From Terriglobia bacterium (GTDB lineage: Bacteria; Acidobacteriota; Terriglobia; JAJPHL01; JAPKYU01), in assembly GCA_965206645.1 (NCBI GenBank), contig CBDBKE010000002.1, forward strand, positions 320,001 to 384,000: DNA of 64,000 bases, given 5' to 3'. The stretch's first letter is position 1, and the number at the start of each line of letters is the position of its first letter. Below, piece after piece: positions 1,504 through 61,549 of the stretch. The position numbers were made by a program, and so were the translations under genes. Under the pieces are notes generated by a model that was given only the letters and a program-made list of their open reading frames with translations, did no database searches and was not told the origin of the DNA.

Positions 1504-3162
1504 CCCGGATTTCCTTTATGAACTATCGGCGGCAACCTTCTGAATGACTCCAACGTCAGTATTGATGCAGGTTCCAGCATCAACATTGCCTTCCGGAGGT
1601 GTACACCGAATGGGTGAGAGCCAAAAACAGGCGTTTCAACTGTCATTCAACCGGTTTCTGCGGGTCACATTTCAGGGATCGCGAATCACTTCCGACGGCG
1701 GTCTGATTGTGGTGCGCGAGTTGGACGAACGTTTGGGGTTCGGCGAACTTATCGAACAGCACTTGATCGACTCTCGGGGGAAGAACACCCGGTTGCCCCT
1801 CGCTGACTTGCTGCGGCAGTCCATCTACAGCCGCTTGGCAGGATACGAAGACGTCAACGACGCCGAGCGGCTTTCCCAAGATCCGACGTTCCGGCTGATC
1901 GGTTCGGAGAAGATCTGGGAACGTGGCGCAGCCCTGACTTCCCGGTTACAGTCGTTCGAGACAGAACTGCTGACGCAAGACGAGAACCTTGCTGGTTTGG
2001 CAGCGATCAACCGGGATTTGATCGCCAGGGCGGAAGCTATGGATGCGCCGCGCCGGGTGGTGCTGGACATGGACAGCACCGAGATCCCGGTCTACGGCGA
2101 ACAGGAGCAGAGCGCCTACAACGGGCATTTCGAGTCGAGTTGCTATCACCCGTTGTTGCTGTTCAGTCGCGAGGGTGACTGTCTGGCGGCCAAGCTGCGA
2201 CCCGGCAACGTGCACAGCGCCGAGGATTGGGAAGAACTTCTCCTGCCAGAGATCGAACGGCAGCAGAAGCTGGGCAAGGAAGTGGTGTTTCGCGCCGACG
2301 CCGCCTTCGCCAAGCCGGAGATCTACGACGCACTGGAGGAGCGGGACGTGAAGTATGCGATTCGCGTCCCGGCCAACGACAGTCTGGAGAGGGACATCGC
2401 GGAGTTGTTGACGCGGTCAGTGGGGCGACCGAGCCACAAGCCGGTGGTCTGGTACAAGAGCTTTCTCTACCAGGCAGCCAGTTGGAAAAAGGCGCGGCGG
2501 GTGGTGGCGAAGGTGGAGTTCCACTTTGGCGAACTGTTCCCTCGCGTGGAGTTCATCGTCACCAATCTGGAGACCGACAGCCGGGCGGTGGTCCGGTTCT
2601 ACAACAAGCGGGGCACCGCAGAGCAATGGATCAAGGAAGGCAAGCAGGCGGTAAAGATGACCCGGCTGAGTTGCCATCGGTTTCGGTCGAACGAGGTGCG
2701 CCTATGGCTGAGCCTGATCGCCTACAACTTGGGAAACCTGTGGCGGCGGCTGGTGCTACCGAAGAGGATCAACAACTGGTCGCTGACGAGTTTGCAGCAG
2801 CGGCTGGTGAAAACGGGAGGACGGCTGGTGAAACATGCGCGATATTACTGGCTTTTGCTGGCCGAAGGGCACTTGAGCCGGAGGCTGTTCAGCAGCATGC
2901 TGCGAACAATCTCGGCACTGCCGCTGCCAGACGGCTAGCGAACCGGGAGAGAGGGTAATTTTAGGTGCTCAGAAGTGGTCGGGCCGGATAAGTGTCAGCG
3001 GCGAGGCAGGCTGGGCAGGCGAAACCCGCACAGCGACTCCGAAGAACAGCCAAAATGTGCCGCACTACCACCTCAAAGAGGCCCGGGCGATTTGCGATTG
3101 ACACGACAGGGTAAGAGGCATAGGTTTTCGGGTGAAGGGGAAGCTCAAAATGGAAATTCCGG
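1504..3162 (+). mobile_element. IS1380-family insertion sequence, copy 1 (type A, 1659 bp)
   Basis: Ends CCCGGATTTCC...GGAAATTCCGG; 5-bp TSD CTAAG at 1499-1503 and 3163-3167; single DDE transposase. Confidence 0.92.
1610..2938 (+). CDS. IS1380-family transposase
   Basis: TSDGGL, GYEDVND, LDMDST, FRADAAF and FYNKRGTAEQWIKEGK motifs. The ATG at 1610 follows a GGAGG RBS; the ORF track starts at 1544. Confidence 0.92.
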   Translation: MGESQKQAFQLSFNRFLRVTFQGSRITSDGGLIVVRELDERLGFGELIEQHLIDSRGKNTRLPLADLLRQSIYSRLAGYEDVNDAERLSQDPTFRLIGSEKIWERGAALTSRLQSFETELLTQDENLAGLAAINRDLIARAEAMDAPRRVVLDMDSTEIPVYGEQEQSAYNGHFESSCYHPLLLFSREGDCLAAKLRPGNVHSAEDWEELLLPEIERQQKLGKEVVFRADAAFAKPEIYDALEERDVKYAIRVPANDSLERDIAELLTRSVGRPSHKPVVWYKSFLYQAASWKKARRVVAKVEFHFGELFPRVEFIVTNLETDSRAVVRFYNKRGTAEQWIKEGKQAVKMTRLSCHRFRSNEVRLWLSLIAYNLGNLWRRLVLPKRINNWSLTSLQQRLVKTGGRLVKHARYYWLLLAEGHLSRRLFSSMLRTISALPLPDG

Positions 3163-3283
3163 CTAAGCAGACCCTCGCATCCCAAGAGGACGACAGATCC
3201 GGAGACATGCAAGGTGTCCTGAAGTTAACTTGCGACCCTGCTTGGCTTGAAGTCCGGATCGACGGAATCTACGGAGGAGTCTG

Positions 3284-4603
3284 TGACCAGACCGATTTTT
3301 TGTACCAACCGTAGTGAGAGTTTACATCGCAGCCTGGGGCTGTGAAACTGGTTTCAGTGGCAGGGGAGGGCTATAGGCCCCCGGCGCCGGGGGCCTATAG
3401 CCGAGCGCCGAGTGCGGCCGCACCGTGTTGTATTGCACCCTCCACTGTTCAATCACCACCTGTGCCTCCTTAGGCCCCCGGCGCCGGGGGCCTATAGCCG
3501 AGCGCCGAGTGCGGCCGCACCGTGTTGTATTGCACCCTCCACAACGAGTAGAAGATCTCTCCATTCAGGCATTCGTCCCGCAGCTTCCCATTGAAACTCT
3601 CGCAGTACCCGTTCTCCCAGGGACTGCCCGGTTCGATGTACAGTGTCCCGGTCCCTAGATTTGCCAACCACTGGCGCAGTTGTTTGGCGATGAACTCGGG
3701 ACCATTGTCGGATCGAATCTGTTCCGGTATCCCTCGCCACAACATCACGTCCGACAACGCCTCAATGATTTGTTGGCTGCCCATCCTCCGCTCCACCCGG
3801 ATCGCCAGGCATTCCCGCGTGTACTCATCCAGCAAGGTCAGCAGCCGCAGCGTTCTCCCCTCGTGCGTTCTGGCACTCATGAAGTCGTAGCTCCACACGT
3901 GGTTCGGTCGCTCCGGCCTCAGTCGTACACAGGAACCGTCGTTCAGCCACAGCCGTCCTCGCGGCCTTTGTTTTTGCGGCACTTTTAGCCCTTCCCGCCG
4001 CCAAATCCGCTGCACCCGGTCCTTGCCCACTTCCCAGCCCGCACTCCGCAGCAACGCTGTGATCCTCCGGTAGCCATATCGCCCGTACTTCGCTCCCAGG
4101 GCAATGATCGCTCGGGTCAGAGCATCCTCGTCCACCCGATGAATCGGCTCGTATCGTTGTGTCCCTCGCCATTGCCCCAGCAGCCGGCAGGCATGCCGTT
4201 CCGACAACCCGTGTTGCTCCCACGCACGCTCCACCGCACAACGCCGCCGCTCAGGGCTCAGAAGTTTCCCTGTGCCACATCCCGCAGCACCTGCTTCTCC
4301 AGAGAAAGCTCCGCTACCAACCGCTTCAGCCGCGTGTTTTCCTTCTCCAACTCCTTTAGCCGTTTTGCCTGCACCACCTTCAGCCCGCCGTATTCCTTCC
4401 GCCACCGGTAGTAGGTTTGGGTGTGGATTCCAGCTTCTTTGCAGGCTTGGGGCGCAGTCTTCCCGTTCCCCATCTGCACTTCTATCTGCCGTAGCACCGC
4501 TACAATCTGCTCCGGCTTGTAACTCCTTGTCGGCATGACCTCACTTCCTCCTCAAGTGGATTCTCTCTCTTTCCACTTGGTACAAAAAGTGCCGGTCAGG
4601 TCA
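3284..4603 (-). mobile_element. IS3-family element with a 70-bp internal duplication that truncates orfB
   Basis: TG...CA ends (TGACCTGACCG/TGACCAGACCG IRs); 4-bp TSD TCTG at 3280-3283 and 4604-4607; orfA 4258-4536; orfB with WSYDF, SDNGPEF and WENGYCESFNG. It is 70 bp longer than the copy at 38480-39729. Confidence 0.92.
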
Positions 4604-4768
4604 TCTGTCCACAGTCCAGAGCATTGGCACCGGGCCAGTACAAGGTCAAGCTGCAAAAGTATGGTTTCAAGGATTGGGAGCGCACGATTGCAATCAAGGC
4701 TGGTGAAACGTTGGAGGTTCGCGTGGAGATGGAGGAGAGCAAGTATTGAAACGAGTGGGCGGCCTGGG

Positions 4769-7173: not shown

Positions 7174-7207
7174 CCGGATTTCCCACGTTCGCCAACTGAC
7201 TCGGGGT

Positions 7208-9071: not shown

Positions 9072-9695
9072 ATGACGAACTCCGCAGTGAAAACACCGGC
9101 CGGGAGCTCGGCTACCGGGGCCACTCCCGACACTCAGCCGTTGCAGGACTTGGTGCGCGAACTGCTGATCCGGCTGGGAGAAGACCCGGAGCGGGACGGC
9201 CTACGGGACACACCCAGACGCGTCGAGCAGGCGCTGCGCTTCCTCACCGGGGGATACCGGAAGAGCCTGGAGGATACGCTGAACGGAGCGCTGTATAGCG
9301 TCACCTACGACGAAATGGTCATCGTGAAGGACATCGAGGTGTTCAGCCTGTGCGAACACCACCTGCTGCCTTTCTTTGGCAAGGTCCATGTGGCCTACAT
9401 CCCCAACAAGAAGGTGATCGGGTTGAGCAAGATCCCCCGCCTGGTAGACATTTTTGCCCAACGTCTCCAAATTCAGGAGCGGCTTACCATGCAGATTGCG
9501 CAGGCCATCGAAGAAAAAATCCAGCCGCAAGGGGTGGGGGTGGTGATGGAAGCACGCCACCTTTGCATGATGATGCGCGGCGTGGAAAAGCAGCATTCCC
9601 AGGCCGTCACCAGCGCCATGCTCGGCTCGTTCCGGGCACAGAAGCAGACCCGGGACGAGTTCCTGGTCCTGGTCCAGCGCGGCAACAATAGCTGA
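9072..9695 (+). CDS. folE: GTP cyclohydrolase I
   Basis: [31 protein letters not shown] and HLCMMMRGV motifs. Start placed at MTNSAV (uncertain). Confidence 0.95.
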
Positions 9696-9766: not shown

Positions 9767-11611
9767 TCAGTCTTTCTTACGGATCTGGAGGCCTAGCTCG
9801 CGGAGCTGCGCTTCGCTGATCGGAGTGGGCGCGTCCACCATCAGATCCACCGCGCGCGCCGTTTTCGGGAAAGCAATCACCTCGCGGATCGAGGTCTCGC
9901 CTGCCAATAGCATCACCACGCGATCCAGCCCCAGCGCCATGCCACCGTGAGGCGGCGTCCCGTACTCGAGCGCTTCCAGAAAAAACCCGAACCGAGCGCG
10001 CGCTTCCTCTTCGCTGAAGCCCAAGGCGCGAAACACTTGCAATTGCACATCTCGGCGGTGAATTCGGATCGAGCCAGAGCCCACCTCAGTCCCATTCAGC
10101 ACCAAGTCATAGGCGCGGGAGCGCACTGCGCCTGGAGCGCTTTCCAACCTGCCCAGGTCTTCCTCGTGGGGCGAGGTAAAGGGGTGATGCGCTGCCACCC
10201 AGCGCCGGTCCTGCTCGCTCCATTCAAACATGGGGAAGTCGGTGACCCACAGGAAACGGAAGTCGAGGGGCTTCAGCAGCCGGTGGCGTTCGTTGTACTT
10301 CTGTCCCAGGTGCAGGCGCAGGGCGCCTGCGGCGTTGAAAATCGGCGTGTCGTGCGGAGTCACCGCCGGACCCGCCGGAGGAATCGGCTCACCGCGCGCC
10401 TCCGGGCCCAGCGGTGCAGCCATGATGGGGATCAGGTCCCCGACCTCAGCGGCCACGGCGCCGGCAACGCGGCGCGCCGTTTCCGGCAAGCTCCGGGCCA
10501 GCGAGCCCTCCAGCCCTTCGCCTGACAGGCGAAGGTCAGCAAAGCCGCGTGCGTTCCGCTCAGCGATGAACTGGTCAATCTCCTCCCGCTCCTTTCGCGA
10601 CAGGCCGGCGCATTGAGGCACGCGGAAAGCCACCAGCGGCAATTCCGGGTCAAAGCGCAGCTTGGCGGTCTCCTCCGGGGCGAACAGTTGGTTGACGCGC
10701 ACGAGCGGCGGCAGGCGCAGATCGGGCTTGTCGCTCCCGTAGAGGCGGATGGCCTCGTCGTAGGTCAGGCGCGGGAACGGCCTGGGCGCTTCCACTCCGG
10801 CCAGCGCGGCCAGACCGAGCATCAGCGGCTCAACCAGCTCGAAGAGCCGATCCTGCTGGGCAAAGGCCATCTCGATGTCCAGTTGGGTGAACTCGGGCTG
10901 GCGGTCGGCGCGCAGGTCCTCGTCGCGGAAGCACCGGACGATTTGGAAGTAGCGGTCAAAGCCGGCGATCATCAGAATCTGCTTGAACAACTGGGGCGAC
11001 TGCGGCAGCGCGTAGAACGAACCGGGCTGGATGCGGCTGGGTACCAGGTAATCGCGCGCTCCTTCGGGAGTCGAGCGGGTCAGGAACGGAGTTTCGATTT
11101 CGAAAAAGCCCTGCTCGGTCATGTACCGGCGAATCTCAAAGCAGATGCGGTGGCGCAACGCGAGGTTCGCTTGCATGCCCGGCCGCCGCAGGTCGAGAAA
11201 GCGGTAGCGCAGCCGGGTGTCCTCCTGAACGGTGGTGTTGTCTTCGATGGGGAAAGGCGGCGTGCGGGCATCATTCAGCACGAAGAGCTGCGCGGCAACC
11301 AGTTCAACGGCGCCGGTGGCCAGTTCCGGGTTGACGGTTTTCGGGTCGCGCTCGACCACCTGCCCGCGCACTCCCACGACAAACTCCCGGCCCAGCCTGC
11401 TAGCGCGCTCGTGGACCTGGGGAAGAAGATCCCGGTTGAAAACGACCTGGGTGACGCCGGCGCGGTCGCGCAAGTCAATGAAGATGAGGCTGCCCAGGTC
11501 GCGCTGTCGCGCCACCCAGCCCGTCAGCACCGCAGTCTGCCCGGCGTGTTCTGAGCGCAGCTCGCCGCACATGTGGGTGCGGCACAGGTCGCCCAGGAAG
11601 TCGAGTTTCAT
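9767..11611 (-). CDS. aspS: Aspartate--tRNA ligase, probably discriminating type
   Basis: [46 protein letters not shown] and [12 protein letters not shown] motifs. RDLG and DPK occupy the positions where non-discriminating enzymes usually have His and Gly. Confidence 0.97.
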
Positions 11612-14114: not shown

Positions 14115-14890
14115 ATGTACATCCGGATCATCTTGGCAATGGCAACATTATGCTGCGTAGTGCCTGTAGCCACGTTAGGACGGCAGCTTGATGTGGCCGG
14201 ATCGGCCGATCACGAGGCAATCACGCGCTACAAAGGTTCTGTGTTGCTCTTCTACGACGAGCAGGAGTATGACGCTTACCTGCTTCCACTCGGAAACTGG
14301 ACTCGGGCCAAACGAGGTTTTGAGTCTTCGCGGACGGTCGAGGGTGAAGTCACTCGGCGATCTTATGTCGCCCCCGAAGGCCCCTCGGTTCTGGCGGTTT
14401 ACCGCAACTTCGAAAGGGCGGTTCAGAATAGCGGCCTGAAAATCCTCTATGGCTGCCTCGAGCAGAACTGCGACCGCAGGTTTGCAAGGAGCTTCATTGG
14501 GATGATGCCATACCGGCTCATCCCGAAGGATCACTATCACAACTTTCACGGACTTTCTCAGATGGCGTATATCGCCGGTGAAGGAGAGCACAAGGGGCGA
14601 CCTATATGGGTTTCCATTGGCATAGGCACGGTGACGGTAGCAGGATCCCGTTACAGGGATACAGACAATCGACGTCGCAGATTTGCCACCAACCGGGTTG
14701 TGTTCTTCGTTGATACGGTCGAGGGCGCCGAGATGGCGACGGACATGGTAACCATCTCCCTTGACAAACTGGCTCAGGCGCTAGCGAACGAGGGCAAGAT
14801 GGTTTTAGATGGCATTTTCTTTGATACCGGCAAGGCCGTTGTGAAACCGAAATCCGACGAGGCCCTCGCCATTATCGCGGATTACCTGAA
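14115..14890 (+). pseudogene. 5' part of a DUF4892-like/OmpA-family protein; remainder at 56156-56337 and 54639-54716 (minus strand)
   Basis: Signal peptide, DHEAITRYKGS, GIFFDTGKA; breaks at ADYL|IS. It rejoins in frame through TSD CTGAA to KGNSAMTFFVTGHTD. Confidence 0.88.
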
Positions 14891-16548: not shown

Positions 16549-16595
16549 ATGAGTCCTATTCGCAGTTGCAGGACTTGCGCTTGAGGAGGATGTCG

Positions 16596-34157: not shown

Positions 34158-34362
34158 GATTAAGATTCAGCGTACGCGTTTAGAGTAGCGACCAACCTGG
34201 TACGTGCCAAGAATGCAGATTGCGGGTTACTTCGGGTTATTTCTGGTTTTTTGGAAGGAGATAATGTTTGAGGGATTCTACCGTTATCTTGCTGTTGTGT
34301 CCGCCACCCACAACTACCAAAGCTCCACTTCTTACGAGGTTTTGCCGTTGCCTCTCACTAAT

Positions 34363-36021: not shown

Positions 36022-36059
36022 TTTAATTGAGGTGATTCCCGCGGCTGCGCCGCCTCGCT

Positions 36060-38364: not shown

Positions 38365-38479
38365 ATACTGCAACCCGGTTCTTGTACGGGTTATTCTGGG
38401 CTCCGCGGGTGCGCAGGGCACCCACCGCAGGGTGGGTACCCCTCTTGCGCTTGTGCATTGTAGGGGGGCCTGTGCGCGA

Positions 38480-39729
38480 TGACCTGACCGGCACTTTTTG
38501 TACCAAGTGGAAAGAGAGAGAATCCACTTGAGGAGGAAGTGAGGTCATGCCGACAAGGAGTTACAAGCCGGAGCAGATTGTAGCGGTGCTACGGCAGATA
38601 GAAGTGCAGATGGGGAACGGGAAGACTGCGCCCCAAGCCTGCAAAGAAGCTGGAATCCACACCCAAACCTACTACCGGTGGCGGAAGGAATACGGCGGGC
38701 TGAAGGTGGTGCAGGCAAAACGGCTGAAGGAGTTGGAGAAGGAAAACACGCGGCTGAAGCGGTTGGTAGCGGAGCTTTCTCTGGAGAAGCAGGTGCTGCG
38801 GGATGTGGCACAGGGAAACTTCTGAGCCCTGAGCGGCGGCGTTGTGCGGTGGAGCGTGCGTGGGAGCAACACGGGTTGTCGGAACGGCATGCCTGCCGGC
38901 TGCTGGAGCAATGGCGAGGGACACAACGATACGAGCCGATTCATCGGGTGGACGAGGATGCTCTGACCCGAGCGATCATTGCCCTGGGAGCGAAGTACGG
39001 GCGATATGGCTACCGGAGGATCACAGCGTTGCTGCGGAGTGCGGGCTGGGAAGTGGGCAAGGACCGGGTGCAGCGGATTTGGCGGCGGGAAGGGCTGAAA
39101 GTGCCGCAAAAACAAAGGCCGCGAGGACGGCTGTGGCTGAACGACGGTTCCTGTGTACGACTGAGGCCGGAGCGACCGAACCACGTGTGGAGCTACGACT
39201 TCATGAGTGCCAGAACGCACGAGGGGAGAACGCTGCGGCTGCTGACCTTGCTGGATGAGTACACGCGGGAATGCCTGGCGATCCGGGTGGAGCGGAGGAT
39301 GGGCAGCCAACAAATCATTGAGGCGTTGTCGGACGTGATGTTGTGGCGAGGGATACCGGAACAGATTCGATCCGACAATGGTCCCGAGTTCATCGCCAAA
39401 CAACTGCGCCAGTGGTTGGCAAATCTAGGGACCGGGACACTGTACATCGAACCGGGCAGTCCCTGGGAGAACGGGTACTGCGAGAGTTTCAATGGGAAGC
39501 TGCGGGACGAATGCCTGAATGGAGAGATCTTCTACTCGTTGAAGGAGGCACAGGTGGTGATTGAACAGTGGAGGGTGCAATACAACACGGTGCGGCCGCA
39601 CTCGGCGCTCGGCTATAGGCCCCCGGCGCCGGGGGCCTATAGCCCTCCCCTGCCACTGAAACCAGTTTCACAGCCCCAGGCTGCGATGTGAACTCTCACT
39701 ACGGTTGGTACAAAAAATCGGTCTGGTCA
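38480..39729 (+). mobile_element. IS3-family element, intact copy of 3284-4603; orfA 38547-38825, orfB to 39691
   Basis: Same IRs; GGGAAAC slippery heptamer at 38813-38819; no TSD (GCGA/GGTG). Confidence 0.92.
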
Positions 39730-47593: not shown

Positions 47594-49576
47594 CTACAGT
47601 CTGGCGATCACAATCACAGTGAGTACGCTGAAGAAGACGCCGGCACACAGCACTCCCAATTGCACCATCCAGTGGGATCGCAGCGGTGCGGGCAGAAAAA
47701 CGCGATTGAGGTAAAAGGTGTGGAAAGCGTTGGCTGCCAGGACGGCGTTCGCCAGGCCCGCTCCAAACTTGGCGAGCTGCAGAGGATCGAGGAAGGCCAG
47801 CGAGAACAGGCCCCAGAATCCGTACACAACCAGGATGCCATAGTAAATATACTTGACCTGGTTTCCCTGAAGCCGTTGCGCACTCTTACTCGTGGCCCAG
47901 ATGAGGTCTGTCCAGAGGCGGGCGATGATGTCGGTTGCAAACACCTGCCCGGGACCCAGGATCACGAAGCCACAAAGCAAGGTCACAAACCAGAGGAGTG
48001 GTCCGTAGTCGGCATACTGTTGCGCCATAGCTCCGGCGGTCATGGCCGCAATGCGGTCGCCCACCACCGGGGCGTGACGGATGAAGCGCAAGGAGATCAT
48101 ACAGGGCAGCGCCATGCCCAACAGCGAGGCGATCATCCAGAGGCCGGCCTGATCACGCCACATGTGGCGGATCCAGCCGCGCCATCGGCCCAGGTTCGCG
48201 GCAGTGAGGGGAAAGACCTGGCCGGTATGAGAAAGGGTAACCCGTCCCCCGCCAACGGCACTGGGGATGGCCCCCACGCGAGCTCCCATTCCCCAACCTT
48301 TATCCCGCACGTAATTCGATATGAGAGCATTGGCGATCCCGCCGGCGCCGGCGATGGAGGCAAAGGCGGCCAGCAGTGCCCAGTCCAGATCGGGAAGCTG
48401 ACCACCGCCAAACAGGTAGCCGAGGAGGTTTTTATGCTGGACGCCTCGATTGCGGACCAGCTCAGTGAACGTCGAGGCCAGCGGCTCAGGGATTTCTTCC
48501 AGTTTTGTCCAGCTTGACTGCTGATCGCCCTCCTGCGCCGAAAACGCTACCGGCATCCATCTCCCGTCCGAATCCACATCACCTTCGACGACAAGAATCT
48601 TCTCTCCCTGCCGGTGCCGGACAAAGAACCCCCCTTTCTCGACGCGAGCCAGCGCCGCGGCAACCATCCGTTGATATCGCGGTTGAAGATCGGGAGAAAT
48701 GCTGTCGCCCATCGCGAAGCTCTGCTTATTTTCCCCGGTGCGGACGATAAATGAGGTTACCAATGGCTGGCCATCCTCCAGCGTGCCCCTCACGGTATAA
48801 ACGGACGGCCCCTCGTATTCCGTGAGAGTGAAGTGGGGACCCAGGATAATCGTCTCGGCGCGCTCCGGTACCGTGCCAATCCGGAAAAAGCCCTGGACCA
48901 CTTCCCAGGCAATGTTGCCGGGAACCATCAGTGCACAGATGATGATGAAGTAACCCAGGACAAGGACCAGCTTGGTGGTCATGAGCCACTCGATCATCTT
49001 GTAAACGGTCCCTCCGAAAATCAGGGGGACGAATGCTCCCAGGAACACGCAGTAGCCCAGGATCTTGACGAACGCGCTCTCGGAGATCGTTAATCCAAGT
49101 ATGGTGATCGTGGCGTCGCCGGGGAGATGACCGAGGATGGCCGCCGCCAACGGAACGGCGGCATTGGCGGCCATGAAAGGAAAGATATCAGAGATCATTA
49201 AGGTTACATAAACGATCGCCCAGAGCCGCGGACCAGGTCGAGTGCGGAAAAATCCGACCCAGACTGGTTCGCCCGTGTAGAGCGTATATCGGATCACTTC
49301 GAGGTTGACGAACAGCTGAGTAACGATGCTGAGGGCGGCCAGCCACAGGATGACTGCGCCATATTGAGCCGTGACCGCCGGTCCGAACAGCCACTCTCCA
49401 CCGCCAATCGAAGCGCCCGCAAGCAGCAGGCCCGGCCCGGCCGCCTTCTTTAAATAGGCGAAGCCGCCTTTTGGTGCGGGGGGCAAATCTCCGGTCGTCC
49501 AGGGACGGAGCGCGCCGGCCTCCACAAGCTTCGGTGTTTTGGTTTCAGATAGGTTCGTGTCCTGGCCCGACTCCAT
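47594..49576 (-). CDS. Nramp-related (YcsG-like) transporter with large inserted soluble domain, paralog 1
   Basis: GPGLLLAGASIGGGEW, RYTLYTGE and YVRDKGWGMG motifs; many TM segments. Confidence 0.78.
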   Translation of the reverse strand: MESGQDTNLSETKTPKLVEAGALRPWTTGDLPPAPKGGFAYLKKAAGPGLLLAGASIGGGEWLFGPAVTAQYGAVILWLAALSIVTQLFVNLEVIRYTLYTGEPVWVGFFRTRPGPRLWAIVYVTLMISDIFPFMAANAAVPLAAAILGHLPGDATITILGLTISESAFVKILGYCVFLGAFVPLIFGGTVYKMIEWLMTTKLVLVLGYFIIICALMVPGNIAWEVVQGFFRIGTVPERAETIILGPHFTLTEYEGPSVYTVRGTLEDGQPLVTSFIVRTGENKQSFAMGDSISPDLQPRYQRMVAAALARVEKGGFFVRHRQGEKILVVEGDVDSDGRWMPVAFSAQEGDQQSSWTKLEEIPEPLASTFTELVRNRGVQHKNLLGYLFGGGQLPDLDWALLAAFASIAGAGGIANALISNYVRDKGWGMGARVGAIPSAVGGGRVTLSHTGQVFPLTAANLGRWRGWIRHMWRDQAGLWMIASLLGMALPCMISLRFIRHAPVVGDRIAAMTAGAMAQQYADYGPLLWFVTLLCGFVILGPGQVFATDIIARLWTDLIWATSKSAQRLQGNQVKYIYYGILVVYGFWGLFSLAFLDPLQLAKFGAGLANAVLAANAFHTFYLNRVFLPAPLRSHWMVQLGVLCAGVFFSVLTVIVIARL

Positions 49577-49646: not shown

Positions 49647-51629
49647 CTACACTCTAGCGATCACAATCGCACTGAGTACACCGAAGAAGGTGCCGGCGCA
49701 CAGCAGTCCCAATTGCACGATCCAGTGGGATCGCAGCGGTGGGGGCAGGAAAACGCGATTGGTGTAGAAGGTGTGGAAAGCGGTAGCCGCCAGAACGACG
49801 TTTGCGAGGCCCGCTCCAATCTTGGCGATCTGCAGAGGATCGAGGAAGGCCAGCGAGTACACGCCCCAGGATCCGTACACAACCAGGATACCGTAGTAAA
49901 TATACTTGACCTGGTTTCCCTGAAGCCGTTGCGCCCTCTTATTCGACACCCAGAGAAGGTCTGTCCAGAGGCGGGCGATGATGTCGGCCGCAAACACCTG
50001 CCCGGGACCCAGTACCATGAAGCCCGTAAACAAGGTCAGGATCCAGAGAAGTGGTCCGTAGTCGGCATACTGTTGCGCCATAGCTCCGGCGGTCATGGCC
50101 GCAACGCGGTCGCCCACCACCGGGGCGTGACGGATGAAGCGCAAGGAGATCATGCAGGGCAGCGCCATGCCCAACAGCGAGGCGATCATCCAGATGCAAA
50201 GCTGGTCGCGCCAAATGTGGCGGATCCAGCCGCGCCAGCGGCCCAAGTTGGCTTGATTCAGGGGAAAGACCTGTCCGGTATGGGAAAGAGTAACCCGTCC
50301 TCCGCCAACGGCACTGGGGATGGCCCCCACGCGAGCCCCCATTCCCCAACCTTTATCCCGCACGTAATTCGAGAGGAGAGCATTGGCGATCCCGCCGGCG
50401 CCGGCGATGGAGGCAAAGGCGGCCAGCAGTGCCCAGTCCAGGTCGGGAAGCTGACCACCGCCAAACAGGTAGCCGAGGAGGTTTTTGTGCTCGACGCCTC
50501 GATTGCGTACCAGCTCAGTGAACGTCGAGGCCAGCGGCTCAGGGATTTCTTCCAGTTTTGTCCAGCTTGACTGCTGATCGCCCTCCTGCGCCGAAAACGC
50601 CACCGGCTTCCATCTCCCGTCCGAATCCACATCACCTTCGACGACAAGGATCTTCTCTTCCTGCCGGTGCCGGACAAAGAATCCCCCCTGTTCGACGCGA
50701 GCCAGCGCCGCGGCAACCATCCGTTGATATCGCGGTTGAAGGTCGGGAGAAATGCTGTCGCCCATGGCGAAGCTCTGCTTATTTTCCCCGGTGCGGACGA
50801 TAAATGAGGTTACCAATGGCTGGCCATCCTCCAGCGTACCCCTCACGGTATAAACGGACGGCCCATCGTGTTCGGTAAGGGTGAAGTGGGGACCCAGGAT
50901 AATCGTCTCGGCGCGCAGCGGCACCGTGCCAAACCGGAAAAAGCCCTGGACCACTTCCCAAGCAATGTTGCCGGGCACCATCAGGGCTGCGATGATGATG
51001 GAGTAACCCAGGACCAGAACCAGCTTGGTGGTCATGAGCCACTCGATCACCTTGTAAATGGTTCCTCCGAAAATCAGAGGCACGAATGCTCCCAGGAACA
51101 CGCAGTAGCCCAGGACCTTGACGAACGCGCTCTCGGAAATCGTGAATCCAACTATGGTGATCGTGGCGTCGCCGGGGAGATGGCCGAGGATGGCCGCCGC
51201 CAACGGAACCGCGGCATTGGCGGCCATGAAAGGCCAGATCATATAGGAGCATAAAATCACATAAAAGGCGGTCCAGAGCCGCGGACCGGGCCGGGTGCGG
51301 AAAAATCCGACGAAGATGGGTTCGCCTGAGTAGAGCGTATATCGGATCAATTCAATGTTGATAAACAGCTGGCCGGCGATGCTGAGGAAGGCCAGCCACA
51401 GGAGAGCGGCGCCATATTGAGCCGAGACCGCCGGTCCGAACAGCCACTCTCCAGCGCCAATCGAAGCGCCCGCGAACAACAGTCCCGGCCCGATCGCTTT
51501 CTTCCAATAGGCGAGGCCGCCTCCCGGTGCGGGGGGCAAATCCCCGGTCGTCCAGGGACGGAGCGCGCCAGCCTCCACAAATTCCGGCGTTTGGGTTTCA
51601 GATAGGTTCGCGTCCTGGCCCGACTCCAT
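49647..51629 (-). CDS. Nramp-related (YcsG-like) transporter, paralog 2
   Basis: Colinear 660-aa tandem paralog; the upstream leader is also duplicated. Confidence 0.78.
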   Translation of the reverse strand: MESGQDANLSETQTPEFVEAGALRPWTTGDLPPAPGGGLAYWKKAIGPGLLFAGASIGAGEWLFGPAVSAQYGAALLWLAFLSIAGQLFINIELIRYTLYSGEPIFVGFFRTRPGPRLWTAFYVILCSYMIWPFMAANAAVPLAAAILGHLPGDATITIVGFTISESAFVKVLGYCVFLGAFVPLIFGGTIYKVIEWLMTTKLVLVLGYSIIIAALMVPGNIAWEVVQGFFRFGTVPLRAETIILGPHFTLTEHDGPSVYTVRGTLEDGQPLVTSFIVRTGENKQSFAMGDSISPDLQPRYQRMVAAALARVEQGGFFVRHRQEEKILVVEGDVDSDGRWKPVAFSAQEGDQQSSWTKLEEIPEPLASTFTELVRNRGVEHKNLLGYLFGGGQLPDLDWALLAAFASIAGAGGIANALLSNYVRDKGWGMGARVGAIPSAVGGGRVTLSHTGQVFPLNQANLGRWRGWIRHIWRDQLCIWMIASLLGMALPCMISLRFIRHAPVVGDRVAAMTAGAMAQQYADYGPLLWILTLFTGFMVLGPGQVFAADIIARLWTDLLWVSNKRAQRLQGNQVKYIYYGILVVYGSWGVYSLAFLDPLQIAKIGAGLANVVLAATAFHTFYTNRVFLPPPLRSHWIVQLGLLCAGTFFGVLSAIVIARV

Positions 51630-54638: not shown

Positions 54639-54716
54639 TCAGTTCGCTCTTTTGACCAGTTCCACCCGCCGGTTCTTGGCGCGGCCCTCTTCCGTCTCGT
54701 TAGTTGCCACGGGCGC
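54639..54716 (-). pseudogene. Extreme 3' piece of the OmpA-family gene
   Basis: APVATNETEEGRAKNRRVELVKRAN*. Confidence 0.88.
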
Positions 54717-56155
54717 GAGGGTGTCCTGAACTCAGTTGAAAGTTCGTAGCGGCGGTTCGGAGCCATCATACTACGCCACCTCCCGTCGAGTGGCCGACTT
54801 TGATCCTTCGAGGATCGCTTTCAACATCCACAGGTCCTGGTACCCCATCAGGCGGCGGAAGTTTTTCTCCGTGGCCAGGAAGCTGGAGGCGACCCAGCGC
54901 TGGACCATGGCCGCATCCCGCCAGCGGCACACCCGGCGAGTTCGCAACCTCACTCCCGCCTGCGGACTCTCGATGAGATTGGTGGTGGCCAGACAGCGAT
55001 GTAGCGAAGCCGGAAGCTCCAGCCGGTTGATGGTGAAACATTCCTCCAGACCCTCCCGTAAGCTGGCCGCCGCGGCCGGACAATCTCGCTCCAACCATTG
55101 GGCCAACTTCTCCAGCTTGGCCCTGCCGGTCTTCGGATCCAACCGCCAGGCGGCCCGCATCGCCGCCCGCACCTGGTCCCGCTCTGGCTCCGGCAACCGG
55201 TCCAGGACGTTGCGCAACTTGTGGGCGCGGCAGCGCTGCACCGGCTGCTCGGCCCCGAACACGGCGCGGATCGCCGCCCGCAAGGCCTTCGAGCCGTCGA
55301 TCACAAACAGCCGTTTCTGGGCCGGCTGCACCCCTCGCCGCACTAAACCTTCCAGCAAGTCCTGGACGGCCGCGGCGTTCTCCGTAGCCCCCTGCTGAAT
55401 CCCCAGCACGTGCTTGTGCCCTTCCGCATCCACGCCCACAGCCGCAATCACGTGATGGTCGCCAAACACCATCCCGTCGATGTAGAGGATCAGCAACTCT
55501 ACTTCCTCGAAGCGGCGGTTCAACAGACGTTCTAACTCGGCTGCGGCAGCCTCCATCGTTTCCCGGCTGACCGTGGAGCGCGACACACCCACGGTGTCCG
55601 CCATCTCCGGCAACACCCGCTGGTACTGCCGGGTCGAGACGCCCCGCAGCAAGATATCCAACATCCGGGCCCCCAGACCCTCGCCCTCCTGCATGGCTTC
55701 GTAGGCCGGGAGGGGAACTTCTTTCCCCGCTCCCCGGCCTGGCCGCCGGAGCCGTGGCCTGTGCACGGCCAGCTTTCTCTCCTTCAGGCGCACCCGTCCC
55801 CGCTGGCGCCCATACCAGCCCACCCCACGGCGCCGCCGGCCCTGACGGCGCGGACCGGCCACCTGCGCGGCCGACAACTCCAGCACCGCTTCAATCGCCG
55901 CCCTACCCACCACGTCGATCAGCTCGTCGACGGCTAACCGCGATTGTTCGATCAACTCCACCCAGGGCAGCAGAAACTGCCCGTGGCGAGCCAGGTAGGC
56001 AGCCAGTTTGCGGGAGCTTCGGCTATCGCTCCGGCCTAGGATGTGGTAGCTTCTCTGCACGGCGGTTCCCCTTTCCAGAAAGTTTCCCAACCCGATTCTA
56101 CGGAACCAGGTCAGCGAACCGCCGCTCAACTTTCAACTAAAGGTGAGACACTCTC
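54717..56155 (-). mobile_element. IS256-family element; transposase ORF 54771-56129
   Basis: IRs GAG(A/G)GTGTC...AGTTGAAAGTT; 8-bp TSD ACGGGCGC at 54709-54716 and 56156-56163; GVSTR, YIDG, IDG, QRCRAHK and TTNLIES motifs. Confidence 0.93.
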
Positions 56156-56337
56156 ACGGGCGCTACGGGTCCGACACCCACCGCCTTAAGGCGAGAGGCG
56201 GCAATGCCGTATTTCTGTGACAGTGCGACTGTCACCGCCTTTGCCCGCGCATCGGAAAGCTGCAGATTGTGCTCGTAGCTTCCGGTGCCGTCTGTGTGTC
56301 CGGTGACGAAAAAAGTCATGGCCGAATTGCCCTTCAG
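56156..56337 (-). pseudogene. Middle piece of the OmpA-family gene
   Basis: LKGNSAMTFFVTGHTDGTGSYEHNLQLSDARAKAV...GVGPVAP. Confidence 0.88.
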
Positions 56338-56588
56338 TGGGGAAACGCACTATTAGCGCTAAAGCGGGTTCTTTCGTCTTTGTCCCTAGAGGTACAGTTC
56401 ACGCCTTTTGTAGGGCTGGGCAGGAACCAGTCAAGGGACTAGCCATGTTCTCTCCAGCAGGGGTTGAGAAGTTTTTTGAAGAAGCGGTCGACATGGATGT
56501 AACGGACACTGAAGCTTATATTGCCAGAGCCAATGCTTTAGCCGAGAAGTACAACATGGAGATTGTGGGGCCGCCACTGGAGGTCTAG
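56338..56588 (+). pseudogene. Captured 3' half of a cupin-domain gene
   Basis: Only cupin motif 2 (AGSFVFVPRGTVHAF) and the C-terminal EIVGPPL are present; the fragment begins exactly at the displaced TSD. Confidence 0.78.
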
Positions 56589-56619
56589 AAGCGGTCTCAG
56601 AGTGCCGAAACGTAGTAGG

Positions 56620-58277
56620 CCGGAATTTCCATTTTGAGCTTCCTCTTCACCCGAAAAGCTATGCCTCGTACCCTGTCGTGTCAACCGCAAACAGCTCTGG
56701 CCTCTTTGAGGTGGTAGTGCGGCACATTTTGGCTGTTCTTCGGAGTTGCTGTGCGGGTTTCGCCTGCCCAGCCTGCCGCGCCGCTGACACTTATCCGGCC
56801 CGACCACTTCTGAGCACCTAAAATTACCCTCTCTCCCGGTTCGCTAGCCGTCTGGCAGCGGCAGTGCCGAGATCGTTCGCAGCATGCTGCTGAACAGCCT
56901 CCGGCTCAAGTGCCCTTCGGCCAGCAAAAGCCAGTAATATCGCGCATGTTTCACCAGCCGTCCTCCCGTTTTCACCAACCGCTGTTGCAAGCTCGTCAGG
57001 GACCAGTTCCCGATTCTCTGTGGCAGCACCAGTCGCCGCCACAGGTTGCCGAGATTATAGGCAATGATGGTGAGCCACAGCCGGACCTCGTTCGACCGGA
57101 ACCGGTGACAACTGAGCCGCGTCATCTTCACTGCTTGCTCTCCTTCTTTGATCCACTGCTCCGCTGTCCCCCGCTTGTTGTAAAACCGCATCACCGCCCG
57201 ACTTGGCAGAGTCAAGTTCGTAACGATAAACCCTACTCGCGGGAACAGCTCCCCTGGATGATGCTCCACCTTGGCCACCACCCTGCGGGCTGTCTTCCAA
57301 CTGGCCGCTTGGTATAGAAAGCCCTTGAACTCCACCAACGGCTTCTTGCTGGGTCTCCCCACCGGCCGAGTCAGCAACTCCTCAATGTCCCGCTGTAGGC
57401 TGTCGTTAGCCGGGATGCGGATGGCGTACTTTACCTCCCGCTCCTCCAGAGCCTCGTAAATCTCCGGCTTGGCAAAGGCCGCGTCGGCACGAAACACCAC
57501 TTCCTTGCCCAGCTGCTGCTGCCGCTCGATCTCCGGCAGGAGAAGTTCTTTCCAGTCCTCGGCGCTGTGCACGTTGCCCGGTCGCAGCTTGGCCGCCAGA
57601 CAGTCACCCTCGCGATTGAACAGCAACAACGGGTGATAGCAGCTCGACTCGAAATGCCCGTTGTAGGCACTCTGCTCCTGCTGGCCGTAGACCGGAATCT
57701 CGGTCGAGTCCATGTCCAGCACCACCCGTTGCGGGGAATCCATAGCTTCCGCCCTGGCGATTAAATCCCGGTTGATCGCTGCCAAACCAGCCAGGTTCTC
57801 ATCTTGCGTCAGTAGTTCTGTCTCGAACGATTGCAGCCGGGAAGTCAACGCGGCTCCTCGCTCCCAGATCTTTTCTGAACCGATCAGCCGGAACGTCGGA
57901 TCTTGAGAGAGCCGTTCCGCGTCATTCATATCTTCGTAACCCGCCAAGCGGCTGTACACGGACTGGCGCAGGAGGTCAGCAAAGGGCAACCGTGTGTTCT
58001 TTCTCCGAGGATCGGCCAAGTGCTGTTTGATGAGTTCTCCGAATCCCAAATGTTCGTCTGATTCGCGCACGAGGATCAGGCCGCCGTCGGAAGTAACCCG
58101 CGACCCCTGGAAATCGACCTTCAATGCAGCATTGAAAGAGAACTGAAAGGGCTGATTTTGCCTCTCACCCACTCGGTTTCTACCTCCGGAAGCTGTATTG
58201 ACGCTGGAACCGGCATAAATATTGGCGTCGGAGGTCAGTATAAGGTTAGCTTTGGAGTTTTAAAACGGAAATCCGGG
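56620..58277 (-). mobile_element. IS1380-family copy 4 (type B); transposase 56844-58172
   Basis: Near-identical inverted copy of copy 2; its left flank (element sense) ATGAG equals the right flank of copy 2. Confidence 0.92.
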
Positions 58278-58557
58278 CTCATTCGGGATGTATCTAGCAT
58301 CTTCGGATTTTGCATCCCGGAAAGCAAGTTGTCCAGCATTTCTTCGGCGCCAGAAGGGACCCGTTCTTGAGGCGCACAGGAGGATGGTTATCTTTGATGG
58401 TGAAGTGCCCAGGCTCTCCGAACCCAGTGACGCTTTTAGCGTCTGCAACCCATTGTTTGCTCTGCGGCGGCCCCGGCAACGCCACGATGGGGCTGTCCCA
58501 GCTGCGGCCCTTGTCAGTGGATCGCAGGACGAAGGTCTTATCGTGATAGCACACTAT

Positions 58558-58935
58558 GAGAGTGAGCGAAACTTAGTTGGAAATTGAAACGGCTCCCACA
58601 CCCGTGTGGTTTGATGACGTTAAGAGACGGACATCACCCCACGAGAGAAAGGAGCCGAGATGAGCAGTGTCCTACGTCCTGTCAGGAAGCGCAAGAAGGG
58701 TCGCACGCTGGGTCCGGTCAAGATCATCCGCCGCGAGGACTACTCCGACCTGGAGCTCGACGCCAAGGTGGAGCTAATCCGGTCCTTGGTCCCCCTGGGG
58801 TTGATGCACGTGGAGGAGTTGCTCGATGAGGAGGTGACGGCGCTGGCGGGCGAGCGATACGCCCGCAAGGACGCGTCGGTCGGAGGGCGCCGTCATGGCA
58901 GCAATCCCGGGACGGTCGGGCTGGCCGGACAGCGC
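58558..58935 (+). mobile_element. Left-end fragment of a second IS256-family element
   Basis: GAGAGTG...TTAGTTG end resembles the IS256 IR above; ORF with EEVTALAGERY...RHGSNPGTV is cut off. Confidence 0.72.
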
Positions 58936-59120
58936 ACTCCGCTGCTGTGGCGCAGCTGAGTCGGTGGGGTAGGAGGAAGCCACGGTTGCTCCACGTCGGC
59001 TGGCTTGAACAGCTTCTTCAGGTTTTCGGTAAGCTGGGTCACCGCTTCCCCATAGGGCACATGTTAGGTCTTGCGGGGCCGTCCGGGCAGGTGGCGTCCG
59101 GTTCTGGCCGATCGGAAGGA

Positions 59121-59651
59121 TCAAGGAAGCTTCTTTCCCGTGCTGAAACCGGCATGGGACGATGGCGCGGTAGCGGCGGCGGCCGTCTCCGCTTTCCTGG
59201 CCTCCGCCCGGGCCACTTCGGCCCGCTGGGTTTCAATGCTTCCCTTGACGTAGGCGCCCTCCTCGATGATGGGCCGGGCTGTGATGATATCGCCGATCAA
59301 CGATCCGGACTTTCGGATCTCGACCTTGTCGATGGCGCGCACGTTCCCCTGCACCTTGCCGATGATGGTAATGTCCTTGGCGTGCAGGTTGGCCTTGACC
59401 CGGCCGTTGGGTCCGACGGTCAGGTTGTGGTCTGGCAGTTCCACCGTGCCTTCGACTTCTCCATCAAGGTACAGGTCCTCCTTTCCCGACAGCTCCCCTT
59501 TTACGACGACGGTTTTGCCGATGTAGGCCATTCCACTGTGGGGCGATCCTTCTCGCTCTGGCTCGAAAGGTCTCCGTTCACTGGGTGTAGCCACAGGACT
59601 CACCTCCTTTGCCACGTTGGTTGTGACTTCTTCTTTGCGCGTTTTCCACAT
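59121..59651 (-). CDS. Bactofilin (polymer-forming cytoskeletal protein), IS passenger
   Basis: IGKTVVVKGEL...DLYLDGEVEG...LTVGPNGRVKA...IIEEGAYVKG; GAGGAG RBS. Confidence 0.9.
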   Translation of the reverse strand: MWKTRKEEVTTNVAKEVSPVATPSERRPFEPEREGSPHSGMAYIGKTVVVKGELSGKEDLYLDGEVEGTVELPDHNLTVGPNGRVKANLHAKDITIIGKVQGNVRAIDKVEIRKSGSLIGDIITARPIIEEGAYVKGSIETQRAEVARAEARKAETAAAATAPSSHAGFSTGKKLP

Positions 59652-59901
59652 GCATTGGACTCCTCGTTGGCAACAAGCGGTCACTTGTCGCCATCAGGCC
59701 GGCCATTTCGATGAAACTATAACACAGGGAGGTCCTGAGCACGGTGCGCAAGCCCGGACGCGTGTCTTCCAAGTACTACTTGCGGCACAATGTCTGCGAT
59801 GGGTCTTCGAGGGAGCTGTGTTTGGAGAAACTGGTAGGGTCTGGTCTGCTTGTGGGCAGGATTTCTTTTTTGGTGTCCCGCTATAGGAGTTGGGACTTTA
59901 G

Positions 59902-61549
59902 CCGGAATTTCCTTTTTGGCCTTCCGGCGATTAAAAATATACACGCATCTGCGTCCCAGCGAGTACAATGTTTTCTCCGAGAGGACCATCAGCTCCGAGC
60001 GTCCCTTTCGGGGTCCCCTAAAACCGTCCAATCAGCATCCAAACCCAGCTTTTTCAGACAACTCTCCATACCTGGGGGATAGCGGCATCGTTTTCTTGTG
60101 TGCCGTAGCCCAGGCTATCCCGACGGGAGTGCCAATCCATCGATCCGCCCCAGCATGCTGGCAAACAGCCGTCGGGTCAAATGGCCCTCGGCCAGCAGGA
60201 GCCAGTAGTACCGTGAGTGTTTTAGGAGCCGTCCTCCGGTTTTCACCAGCCGCTGCTGGAGGCTCGTCAAGGACCACTTCTCGATTCTCTGTGGCAGCAC
60301 TAGCCGTCGCCATAGGTTGCCCAGGTTGTAGGCGATGATCGTCAGCCAAAGCCGTACCTCGTTAGATCGGAACTTGTGGCAACTGAGCCGCGTCATCTTC
60401 ACCGCCTGCTTGCCTTCCTTGATCCACTGTTCTGCGGTGCCGCGCTTGTTATAGAATCGCACCACCGCCCGATTCGGCAGCGTCAGATTCGTTACAATGA
60501 ACCCCACTCGCGGGAACAACTCCCCGGAATGATGCTCTACTTTCGCCACCACCCTTCGAGCCGTCTTCCAACCGGCTGCCTGGTACAAGAACCCCTTGTA
60601 CTCGACCAGCGGTTTCTTGGTGGGCCTTCCCACGGGGCGTTTCAGTAGCTCTTCGATGTCTCGCTGCAGAATATCGTTGGCCGGGATGCGAATTGCGTAC
60701 TTCACACCCCGTTCCTCCAATGCCTCGTACACCTCCGGCTTGGCAAAGGCCGCGTCCGCCCGAAACGCAATCTCTTTTCCCATTCTTTGCTGGCGCTCAA
60801 TCTCGGGCAACAGGAGTTTCTCCCAACCCTCGGCACTGTGCACGTTGCCCGGACGGAGCTGGGCCGCCAGACAATCCCCCTCGCGGTTGAACAGCAACAG
60901 CGGGTGAAAGCAAGTTGACTCGAAGTGCCCGTTGTAGGCGCTCTGCTCCTGTTCGCCGTAGACAGGGATCTCAGTCGAGTCCATGTCCAGCACTGTTCGG
61001 TACGGCGAATTCAACGCTTCTGCTTTGCCAATCAGTTCCCGGTTCACCCGTGCCAGCCCTGGGAAGTTCCCATCCTCGGCCAGCAGGTCCGTCTCGAAGG
61101 TTTGCAACCGGGATGGCAGTGCTGCCCCTCGATCCCAGATCTTCTCGGAGCCGATCAGCCGGAAGGTCGGATCTCGTGAGAGCTGCTTGGCATCATTCAC
61201 ATCCTCGTACCCAGCCAGGCGGCTGTACACCGACTGCCGCAGCAGGTCCGCGAAAGACAACCGCGCATTGTTTGCCCGCGAATCGGTCAGGTGCTCGTCA
61301 ATGAGTTCGCTGAATCCCAGACGCTCATCCAACTCCCGGACCAGAATCAGTCCACCATTGGAAGTCACTCGTGATCCCTGGAACCCGACTCGCAGAAATC
61401 GGTTGAACGACAGCTGAAATCCCTGTTTTCCGCTCTCACCCATTGGGTGTACACCTCCGGAAGGCAATGTTGATGCTCGAACCCGCATGAATATTGACGT
61501 TGGAGGTTAGCAGAACGTTGCCGCTGCGTTTTCAAAAAGGAAATCCGGG
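59902..61549 (-). mobile_element. IS1380-family copy 5 (type C, 1648 bp); transposase 60115-61443
   Basis: Same terminal motifs with a diverged transposase; flank CTTAT (61550-61554) recurs at 58537-58541. Confidence 0.92.

Follow-up and report, generated by a model that had tools for sequence, protein, structure and literature searches.

Probable read-through units of IS1380-family elements (IS1247 branch) in an acidobacterial chromosome

The analysed window, a stretch of 64,000 nucleotides from the chromosome of a Terriglobia bacterium, contains five IS1380-family copies, and in three of the five insertions one IS whose IRL is intact carries added DNA solely past its IRR, with the 5-bp target duplication placed around the whole unit. 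The same behaviour is seen in all three IS types of the window and in a second genome. We suggest, with a probability of roughly 85%, that these are read-through units of elements of the IS1247 branch, that is, a transposable module or transposition unit of the ISEcp1 type. In the proposed mechanism the transposase would use the true left end and, in a large share of events, overshoot the true right end, so that a downstream site with a weak likeness to the IRR would be joined to the target in its place. The moving unit would comprise the IS and 0.26–1.4 kb of the DNA that happened to adjoin the donor copy on its right, and this entire unit would then be enclosed by the 5-bp duplication usual for the family. 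The outer cut is presumably made by the transposase itself.

The five copies are 1648–1659 bp long, start with CCCGGATTTCC and end with GGAAATTCCGG. Each has one intact transposase ORF of 442–464 aa, and by manual count the IRL agrees with the reverse complement of the IRR at 15 of 20 positions. Type 1 comprises A (1504–3162, + strand, with an intact 464-aa transposase at 1544–2938) and C (34363–36021, + strand, 99.5% identical to A). Type 2 comprises B (14891–16548, + strand) and D (56620–58277, − strand, 6 differences from B). Type 3 is represented by E (59902–61549, − strand), which is 73% identical to the other copies. Across 1.66 kb the copies of one type are 99.5–99.6% identical. Positions and ends are the same as in the preliminary description, and its assignment to the IS1380 family holds, with 366–374 bits for the transposases on NCBIfam NF033539 (A 374, B 372, E 367), where the curated cut-off is 180 bits, and E-values of 1e-115 to 1e-119 on PF13701. 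Among the annotated sequences of the plasmid set, the nearest relative is an IS1247-like transposase with 49.6% identity. The window as a whole is rich in IS elements, which are of the IS1380, IS256 and IS3 types.

Five pairs of 5-bp duplications are present in the window. In two insertions the duplicate lies directly at both ends: CTAAG of A (1499–1503 and 3163–3167), a normal insertion, and ATGAG, once the flanks of B and D are exchanged. In the three others the second duplicate lies further out. The left duplicate of C, CTAAT at 34358–34362, recurs at 36286–36290 (+ strand), 264 bp past the IRR; CTGAA is found beyond D at 56337..56333 (− strand), 282 bp past the IRR; and ATAAG of E, at 61554..61550 on the left, recurs at 58541..58537 (− strand), 1360 bp past the IRR. 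The CTGAA pair, inspected by eye, does not extend to 6 bp.

B is flanked by CTGAA on the left (14886–14890) and ATGAG on the right (16549–16553), and D by ATGAG on the IRL side (58282..58278) and the distal CTGAA. The 5′ part of an OmpA-like gene lies to the left of B, and the region upstream of a PSCyt/DUF1549/DUF1553 gene to its right. The OmpA case resolves only when B and D are seen to have swapped flanks, which implies an inversion of about 40 kb between these inverted, near-identical copies. The flank pattern apparently shows that the segment 16549–56619 now lies in the orientation opposite to that at the time of both insertions, and B and D would have exchanged flanks later through this inversion. 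When the duplicates are paired after the exchange, ATGAG marks a normal insertion and CTGAA a displaced one.

Recurrence of a 5-mer within 264–1360 bp has a chance of about 0.2–0.7 and alone is not rare. Chance is excluded for the displaced duplicates by the gene test, in which open frames and gap-free alignment to homologues decide, rather than 5-mer recurrence. Joins at the duplicates yield open frames for an HTH protein, an OmpA-like protein and a BNR/Asp-box (sialidase-like) protein. The HTH-type gene split by the C unit (34240–36962, − strand) has its N part at 36288–36962 and its C part at 34240–34362. The OmpA-like gene begins at 14115–14890 (+ strand), continues at 56337..56156 (− strand; this middle part, 56156–56337, covers OmpA profile positions 31–85 of 98) and, after an IS256-family insertion, proceeds at 54716..54639. 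The BNR/Asp-box gene split by the E unit (58297–62116, − strand) has its N part at 61550–62116 and its C part at 58297–58536. Pfam gives no match for the short halves of the HTH gene or the C part of the BNR gene, and these pieces were assessed by alignment to homologues in place of Pfam. All three rebuilt proteins align without an indel to uninterrupted public proteins, which represent the empty-site alleles: P0019 (265 aa, 97% identical to the query part) for HTH, P0002 (340 aa, 91%) for OmpA and P0023 (243 aa, 99%) for BNR/Asp-box. Control joins made straight at the IRR break the frame after 0–27 residues. Hence the earlier observation of duplicates displaced by 264, 282 and 1360 bp in three of five insertions is confirmed with exact pairs, as is the claim that joining at them restores the interrupted genes in frame.

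The DNA between each IRR and its distal duplicate consists of unrelated gene pieces. The 264-bp passenger of C (36022–36285, + strand, ending ...GACTTTCTCGG) contains the 3′-terminal 74 codons of pdxT, which run on the opposite strand (36063–36284). This piece covers SNO profile positions 124–187 of 188, and its 74 residues are 100% identical to residues 131–204 of full-length P0140, encoded on another contig. The 282-bp passenger beyond the IRR of D (56338–56619, − strand, ending ...GCGTTTCCCCA) contains a + strand fragment of a cupin gene, namely its C-terminal 82 codons (56340–56585). The 1360-bp passenger of E (58542–59901, − strand, ending ...GTGCTATCACG) includes a bactofilin gene that is complete and runs in the direction of the transposase (59124–59531 tested, PF04519), and a transposase-like, IS256-like relic of 99 codons on the + strand (58660–58959). 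The relic protein is not similar to the IS256-family transposase of the window. By BLAST the three passengers are single-copy in the window (self-matches only), with no similarity among themselves or to the rest of it, and the 10 related loci described below, all from other genomes, hold no second copy. We suggest that the donor copies adjoined pdxT, the cupin gene and the bactofilin gene. The preliminary description had called the passengers unrelated chromosomal sequence and interpreted them as DNA captured beyond the right end; both statements are supported, the latter by the addition of DNA past the IRR only, the duplication around the unit and the content of the passengers.

The same structure might arise in two steps, by a plain insertion followed by later entry of foreign DNA between the IRR and the duplicate, or from a composite transposon that lost its second IS. 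The window is indeed IS-dense and underwent at least one IS-mediated rearrangement, so multi-step histories occur here; however, this origin needs exact placement three times in the window and twice in the related MAG, with a different fragment each time. Nor is a second IS end present at any outer boundary. The IS256-like terminus in the E passenger starts 16 nt inside the outer end, and on this ground, together with the dissimilarity of the relic protein to the IS256-family transposase of the window, it was rejected as the origin of that end. Homologous recombination swaps whole flanks and cannot return to the target gene after 264–1360 bp. We consider a two-step origin very improbable. A composite transposon proper was rejected, as each duplication-bounded unit has one IS only and no match to the IRL or IRR core is found at the outer ends of the window units.

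Misjoining of contigs at the repeated IS copies seems scarcely credible as the source of the units. The near-identity of same-type copies over their 1.66 kb would favour misjoins, and one inside the repeat could also produce the B/D flank exchange. Yet the junction of passenger end, duplicate and target lies in unique sequence, outside the repeats, and therefore repeat-driven misassembly cannot create it. The same architecture is found in an independent assembly (L002 and L007, see below). In addition, the IS256-family element in the same OmpA-like gene is orthodox, with an 8-bp duplication tight at both ends, which indicates that displaced duplicates are not general in this assembly.

Displaced duplicates are also seen beyond the window, in a related set of 10 loci from acidobacterial and other MAGs obtained by one scan of genome contigs. 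Three insertions were resolved (L002, L007 and L005, all with 5-bp duplications) and three were not (L001, L003 and L009), while L004, where the IRL is damaged, L006, L008 and L010 stayed outside the analysis. At L001 the duplicate is only 10 bp out at an intergenic site and is ambiguous, and at L009 and L003 none of the tested offsets restored a gene convincingly. L002 and L007 belong to one Terriglobia MAG, with IS copies that share 99.3% identity with A; the two have one and the same right flank and different left flanks. An ORF is restored at L002 with the duplicate CTAGG at offset 949 (unit of 949 bp), and at L007 with CTTAG at offset 1066 (unit of 1066 bp). The L002 passenger holds a whole 269-aa ORF. 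The L007 unit consists of the entire L002 unit plus part of the L002 target gene, which suggests that modules grow serially and that the parent copy is kept. Displaced units thus make up two of the three resolvable related insertions and, with the window, five of the eight resolved ones. The earlier view that capture is frequent agrees with these proportions, as with the three of five in the window, though the counts behind it are small.

The three 11-mers quoted earlier as outer ends are exactly those found, and they match the IRR at 4–5 of 11 positions (4–7 of 11 over all five endpoints, L002 and L007 included). The description of very degenerate ends holds in this respect, though the ends do not appear to be random: within their own passengers the five endpoints have rank fractions of 0.003–0.33 (top 0.3–33% of positions) over six window lengths, with Fisher combined P of 0.006–0.04, values that come from six lengths tried and five endpoints only. 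‘Surrogate IRR’ would appear to fit the outer ends weakly. One-ended Tn21/Tn3 transposition is reported to yield quasi-random endpoints, and by analogy the elements might undergo one-ended replicative transposition in which likeness to the IRR plays no part in the choice of right end and the slight likeness is noise. In the 11-mer comparison the three window endpoints are within the top 13–29% of positions and not at the top rank, and better sites (8–9 of 11) were skipped in four of five passengers, that of D having 6 of 11 as its best. A passage of PMC9330008 calls the transposition pathway of the IS1380 family unknown, and PMC4133298 mentions one-ended Tn21 transposition with variable endpoints. 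Nevertheless, whichever of the six window lengths is used, all five endpoints rank within the better third of positions, and at n = 17 they are in the top 4–12%; G occupies position −11 in five of five and a TCA..TG-like subterminal pattern occurs in three of five. Exact 5-bp duplications at both junctions also suit ordinary two-ended strand transfer. We therefore regard one-ended transposition as unlikely. Only tentatively do we propose for the read-through units that read-through might be the majority outcome, and no rare slip, in this acidobacterial clade of IS1380 elements and that the right end might be set by a loose subterminal signal (about −17 to −10) rather than by the terminal bases; this is possible, though doubtful.

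We consider that the mechanism is not new: it appears to match the ISPme1/IS1247a modules and the ISEcp1 units, and the window would be a clean new example. In Paracoccus, according to the relevant sections of PMC3281130 and PMC9330008, transposable modules (TMos) consist of a single IS that moves DNA of various length situated past its right (3′) end; what they carry is normal genomic DNA instead of resistance genes, and the donor seems to stay in place. The window units share with them the single IS at one end and ordinary cargo of variable length beyond the right end. The statement of the preliminary description that ordinary genes are moved is correct for the pdxT, cupin and bactofilin pieces, and the Paracoccus modules already do so. 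Table 2 of PMC3281130 lists IS1247 with 1672 bp, 5-bp DR and IR 16/13, a length close to that of the window copies and the same duplication size. However, TMos are hosted by Alphaproteobacteria and the present units by Acidobacteriota, here in a chromosome without selection or a trap plasmid, and two of the three window passengers consist of functionless 3′ ends of genes, oppositely oriented. PMC9330008, in its part on ISPme1 and ISEcp1, attributes an outward promoter to both, whereas a simple consensus scan of the 3′ end of A (2900–3200), which does not cover acidobacterial promoter types, gave no sigma-70-like site.

ISEcp1 units, as outlined in part of PMC4508618, combine the IRL with a poorly matching alternative right end and have a 5-bp duplication round the unit, and an interrupted gene served there as proof; the window units are alike in all these points. 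Unlike them, ISEcp1 has a transposase with 22.5% identity to those of the window (plasmid set) and carries mainly resistance genes under selection (blaCTX-M, blaCMY and others), whereas the cargo here is unselected chromosomal DNA. In IS91/ISCR elements one copy likewise takes adjacent DNA along when it fails to stop at its own terminator end, but these elements have another type of transposase and leave no target duplications (both points from the corresponding part of PMC9330008). Rolling-circle identity was rejected for the window elements, whose transposase is an IS1380-family DDE enzyme and which are flanked by 5-bp duplications. Judged by titles and abstract openings, none of the four papers retrieved on IS1380 together with Acidobacteria concerns read-through capture.

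The finding leaves the mechanism itself unchanged. What is known of read-through in the IS1380 family comes mostly from ISEcp1, with resistance genes that antibiotics select for, and from trap-plasmid work on Paracoccus (ISPme1); the window presents it in a distant phylum, in a chromosome without such selection, and for three diverged IS types together. It adds the empty-site alleles as proof, and with them comes one module that apparently grew by a second read-through. It also gives an unbiased view of unselected cargo, which is mostly useless gene ends and occasionally a whole gene, and provides a small natural endpoint set with which recognition by the transposase can be studied. Annotators of such genomes are warned to look further downstream for IS boundaries and for target duplications that seem ‘missing’. 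If read-through is truly the majority outcome, the elements would continually create duplicates of gene fragments and of whole genes and extend them, with serial growth as from L002 to L007, and would steadily supply soil bacteria with segmental duplications, independently of selection.

Two minor observations concern short motifs. An extra IRL-core 10-mer at 7174–7183, with no similarity outside its 10 bases, is probably due to chance and was rejected. The NTNAN pattern occurs in three of four passenger starts and six of eight duplications, with a chance of 0.034–0.04 per site (binomial P 2.5e-4), and the first 5 bp of the passengers look like old target sites.

The window carries one kind of insertion sequence in five copies: A (1504-3162, plus strand), B (14891-16548, plus), C (34363-36021, plus), D (56620-58277, minus) and E (59902-61549, minus). 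All five start with CCCGGATTTCC and end with GGAAATTCCGG, and each carries a single intact transposase ORF of 442-464 aa. The copies form three types. A and C (type 1) are 99.5% identical, B and D (type 2) share 99.6% identity with 6 differences, the identity between types 1 and 2 is 85%, and E (type 3) shows 73% identity to each other copy. The A, B and E transposases hit the Pfam family PF13701 with E-values of 1e-115 to 1e-119 and score 366-374 bits with the NCBIfam IS1380-family model, against a cut-off of 180. Their nearest annotated relative in the plasmid collection is IS1247-like (49.6% identity); the ISEcp1 transposase from the same collection is 22.5% identical to those of the window. 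The 10-nt core of the left inverted repeat (IRL) has one further exact match, its sixth, at 7174-7183; the likeness ends at this core and is probably due to chance.

The 5-bp target duplications divide the insertions into two groups. CTAAG adjoins both ends of A. In C the left CTAAT is repeated 264 bp past the right inverted repeat (IRR), and in E the left ATAAG is repeated 1360 bp past the IRR. B has CTGAA at the left and ATGAG at the right, while D has ATGAG at the left and CTGAA 282 bp past its IRR. Thus, two of the five insertions are orthodox (CTAAG and ATGAG) and three have a displaced second duplicate (CTAAT, CTGAA and ATAAG). B and D are near-identical, mutually inverted and have exchanged flanks. 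This pattern is as expected from, and implies, the inversion of the ~40-kb segment 16549-56619. Two separate insertions may have recombined to give it, or it may stem from a replicative event within one molecule; the flanks fit both. The exchange could also be a misjoin.

Since it is no rarity for a 5-mer to recur at distances between a few hundred and 1400 bp, the weight rests on the genes restored when the DNA is joined at the duplicates. The CTAAT join yields a minus-strand ORF with a helix-turn-helix region at its C-terminus. Joining the left flank of B to the DNA past CTGAA at the right of D gives an OmpA-like protein, the right half of which alone covers positions 31-85 of 98 of the OmpA profile. 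The ATAAG join produces a BNR/Asp-box protein. Each of the three has an uninterrupted counterpart in public protein sets: P0019 (265 aa, 97% identity to the query part), P0002 (340 aa, 91%) and P0023 (243 aa, 99%), respectively. No residue is gained or lost across the junction in the alignments of the joined proteins, and P0019, P0002 and P0023 act as empty-site alleles. In the control joins made right at the IRR the frame stops after 0-27 residues. The displacement of the second duplicate in three of the five insertions, claimed in the preliminary description, is thus confirmed by the duplicates, the frame-restoring joins and the uninterrupted proteins. The BNR/Asp-box gene (58297-62116, minus strand) encodes 243 aa even in its uninterrupted form P0023, and its relatives have ~400 aa; probably, it was already truncated before the arrival of the IS.

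The three passengers, that is, the DNA between the IRR and the displaced duplicate, are mutually unrelated, and no further copy of any of them is present in the window. The 264-bp passenger of C comprises the final 74 codons of pdxT, read from the opposite strand (SNO profile, positions 124-187 of 188; also TIGR03800); these residues are 100% identical to positions 131-204 of the full-length 204-aa public protein P0140. The 282-bp passenger of D likewise carries a gene end on the opposite strand, the C-terminal 82 codons of a cupin protein. The 1360-bp passenger of E carries a complete bactofilin gene (PF04519, positions 2-97 of 98), co-oriented with the transposase, and a 99-codon transposase-like relic. 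At its upstream end, which begins 16 nt inside the outer boundary of the passenger, the relic is similar to the inverted repeat of the IS256-family element of the window. These contents suggest that the cargo of a unit is whatever adjoined the donor copy on the right, cut at an arbitrary-looking point in or beyond a gene. It is ordinary DNA rather than resistance genes, as had been stated before, and ordinary cargo is already known from Paracoccus.

A scan of the genome collection with an internal 35-nt pattern returned 10 related loci (L001-L010), all from genomes other than the source. L002 and L007 share one contig of a Terriglobia MAG (CBDCVK01) and hold copies 99.3% identical to A. Their left flanks differ, and the DNA on the right is identical for 1068 bp past the IRR. 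The left 5-mer of L002, CTAGG, is found again at offset 949, where the join restores an ORF of 305 codons; that of L007, CTTAG, is repeated at offset 1066, where a 475-codon frame is restored. The passenger common to both includes a complete ORF of 269 codons that runs in the same direction as the transposase. Because the first 1066 bp are identical, the L007 unit is made up of the L002 unit together with the duplication of the latter and 112 bp from the L002 target gene. Hence, L007 arose when an existing module read through a second time, with the parent kept, and this MAG adds a case of serial module growth. The insertion in L005 is orthodox, with TTACA on either side. In L001 the duplicate lies 10 bp out at an intergenic site and is ambiguous, and in L004 the IRL is damaged. 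With the five insertions of the window and L002, L005 and L007 counted as resolved (L001, L003, L004, L006, L008, L009 and L010 stand outside the count), passengers are present in 5/8. The high frequency proposed earlier is therefore suggestive, with the numbers being small.

The duplications of these eight insertions follow the pattern NTNAN in six cases; T occupies position 2 in all eight, A occupies position 4 in 6/8, and the sequence is often CTNAG-like. The passengers of the window themselves start with TTTAA (pdxT), CCTAC (cupin) and CTAAA (bactofilin), and such initial 5-mers also fit NTNAN in three of four cases (chance 0.034-0.04 per site, P 2.5e-4). This is expected if a passenger opens with the right-hand duplication of the donor copy itself.

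We suggest read-through by DDE transposition as the best reading of these units. The left end would be correctly recognised in an otherwise ordinary reaction, and the right-end reaction would take place further downstream, at a site of poor match. The IS would then move together with its right flank as a single unit, bracketed by the 5-bp duplication of the family. The interpretation that IS1380-family copies move adjacent DNA is supported by the three units of the window together with L002 and L007. Misassembly cannot produce the passenger-target junction, which lies in unique sequence, and would leave the same design in another assembly unexplained. Recombination between IS copies cannot produce the units either, as it swaps whole flanks, which is the case for B and D, and does not lead back into the target gene some hundred bases later. 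For a two-step history, an identical exact placement would have to occur five times. The displaced duplications are also specific to the IS1380 copies, as follows from the IS256-family element at 54717-56155 (minus strand; 452-aa transposase, NF033543, 230 bits), whose 8-bp duplicates at 54709-54716 and 56156-56163 are tight against both ends. This element lies in the 3' end of the OmpA-like gene hit by the IS1380 unit, and the gene resumes with its final 25 codons at 54716..54639; it was thus struck twice.

The proposed mechanism makes the units similar to the transposable modules of ISPme1 and IS1247a, in which a single IS1380-family element moves with adjacent DNA of various lengths and for which the hybridisation evidence described points to a replicative process (PMC3281130, PMC9330008). 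They also resemble ISEcp1 units, described as using an alternative IRR and as being enclosed by a 5-bp repeat (PMC4508618), in the poor alternative right end and the 5-bp duplication around the unit. New here are the host lineage, the co-occurrence in three IS types that have diverged from each other, and the proof by empty sites in a chromosomal setting free of selection. Among the papers retrieved on IS1380 and Acidobacteria, titles and abstract openings gave no account of such behaviour in Acidobacteria.

The outer ends are very degenerate, as the preliminary description correctly held. Against the terminal 11 bases of the IRR, they match at 5 (C), 4 (D), 4 (E), 5 (L002) and 7 (L007) positions, and better sites with up to 9/11 matches are skipped inside the passengers. 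When each used end is ranked against all positions of its own passenger, the ends fall in the top 0.3-33%, with a combined P of 0.006-0.04 over six window lengths. At the best length, n=17, all five are in the top 4-12%. G stands at position -11 in 5/5 ends, and a TCA..TG-like pattern, as in the subterminal IRR, is seen in three; positions -17 to -10 are thereby a candidate subterminal motif. These five endpoints, with several window lengths tried, lend weak support to a loosely recognised IRR-like site; the choice of the right end may follow such loose likeness or be quasi-random. A more distant relative in L010 (reverse strand), with ~78% identity to A, has at its end three IRR-like units of 17-19 nt in tandem, seen in about 150 bp around the expected IRR, and it is possible that this relative has several right ends of its own.

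Other repeats were also noted. An IS3-family element (NF033516) forms inverted 1064-bp stretches at 3542-4605 and 38478-39541, reported as 100% complementary. The copy near A seems shorter (311 vs 337 codons), and directly ahead of it a ~70-bp stretch is present twice at about 3390-3541. In L005 an IS3-family-like element (9241-9393 and 11063-11165), 74-79% similar to that of the window, hosts the type-2-like copy as a nested insertion. Finally, two neighbouring ORFs of 660 codons each, at 47594-49576 and 49647-51629 (minus strand), share 89% identity in the 300 nt that were compared and have the look of a tandem gene duplication.
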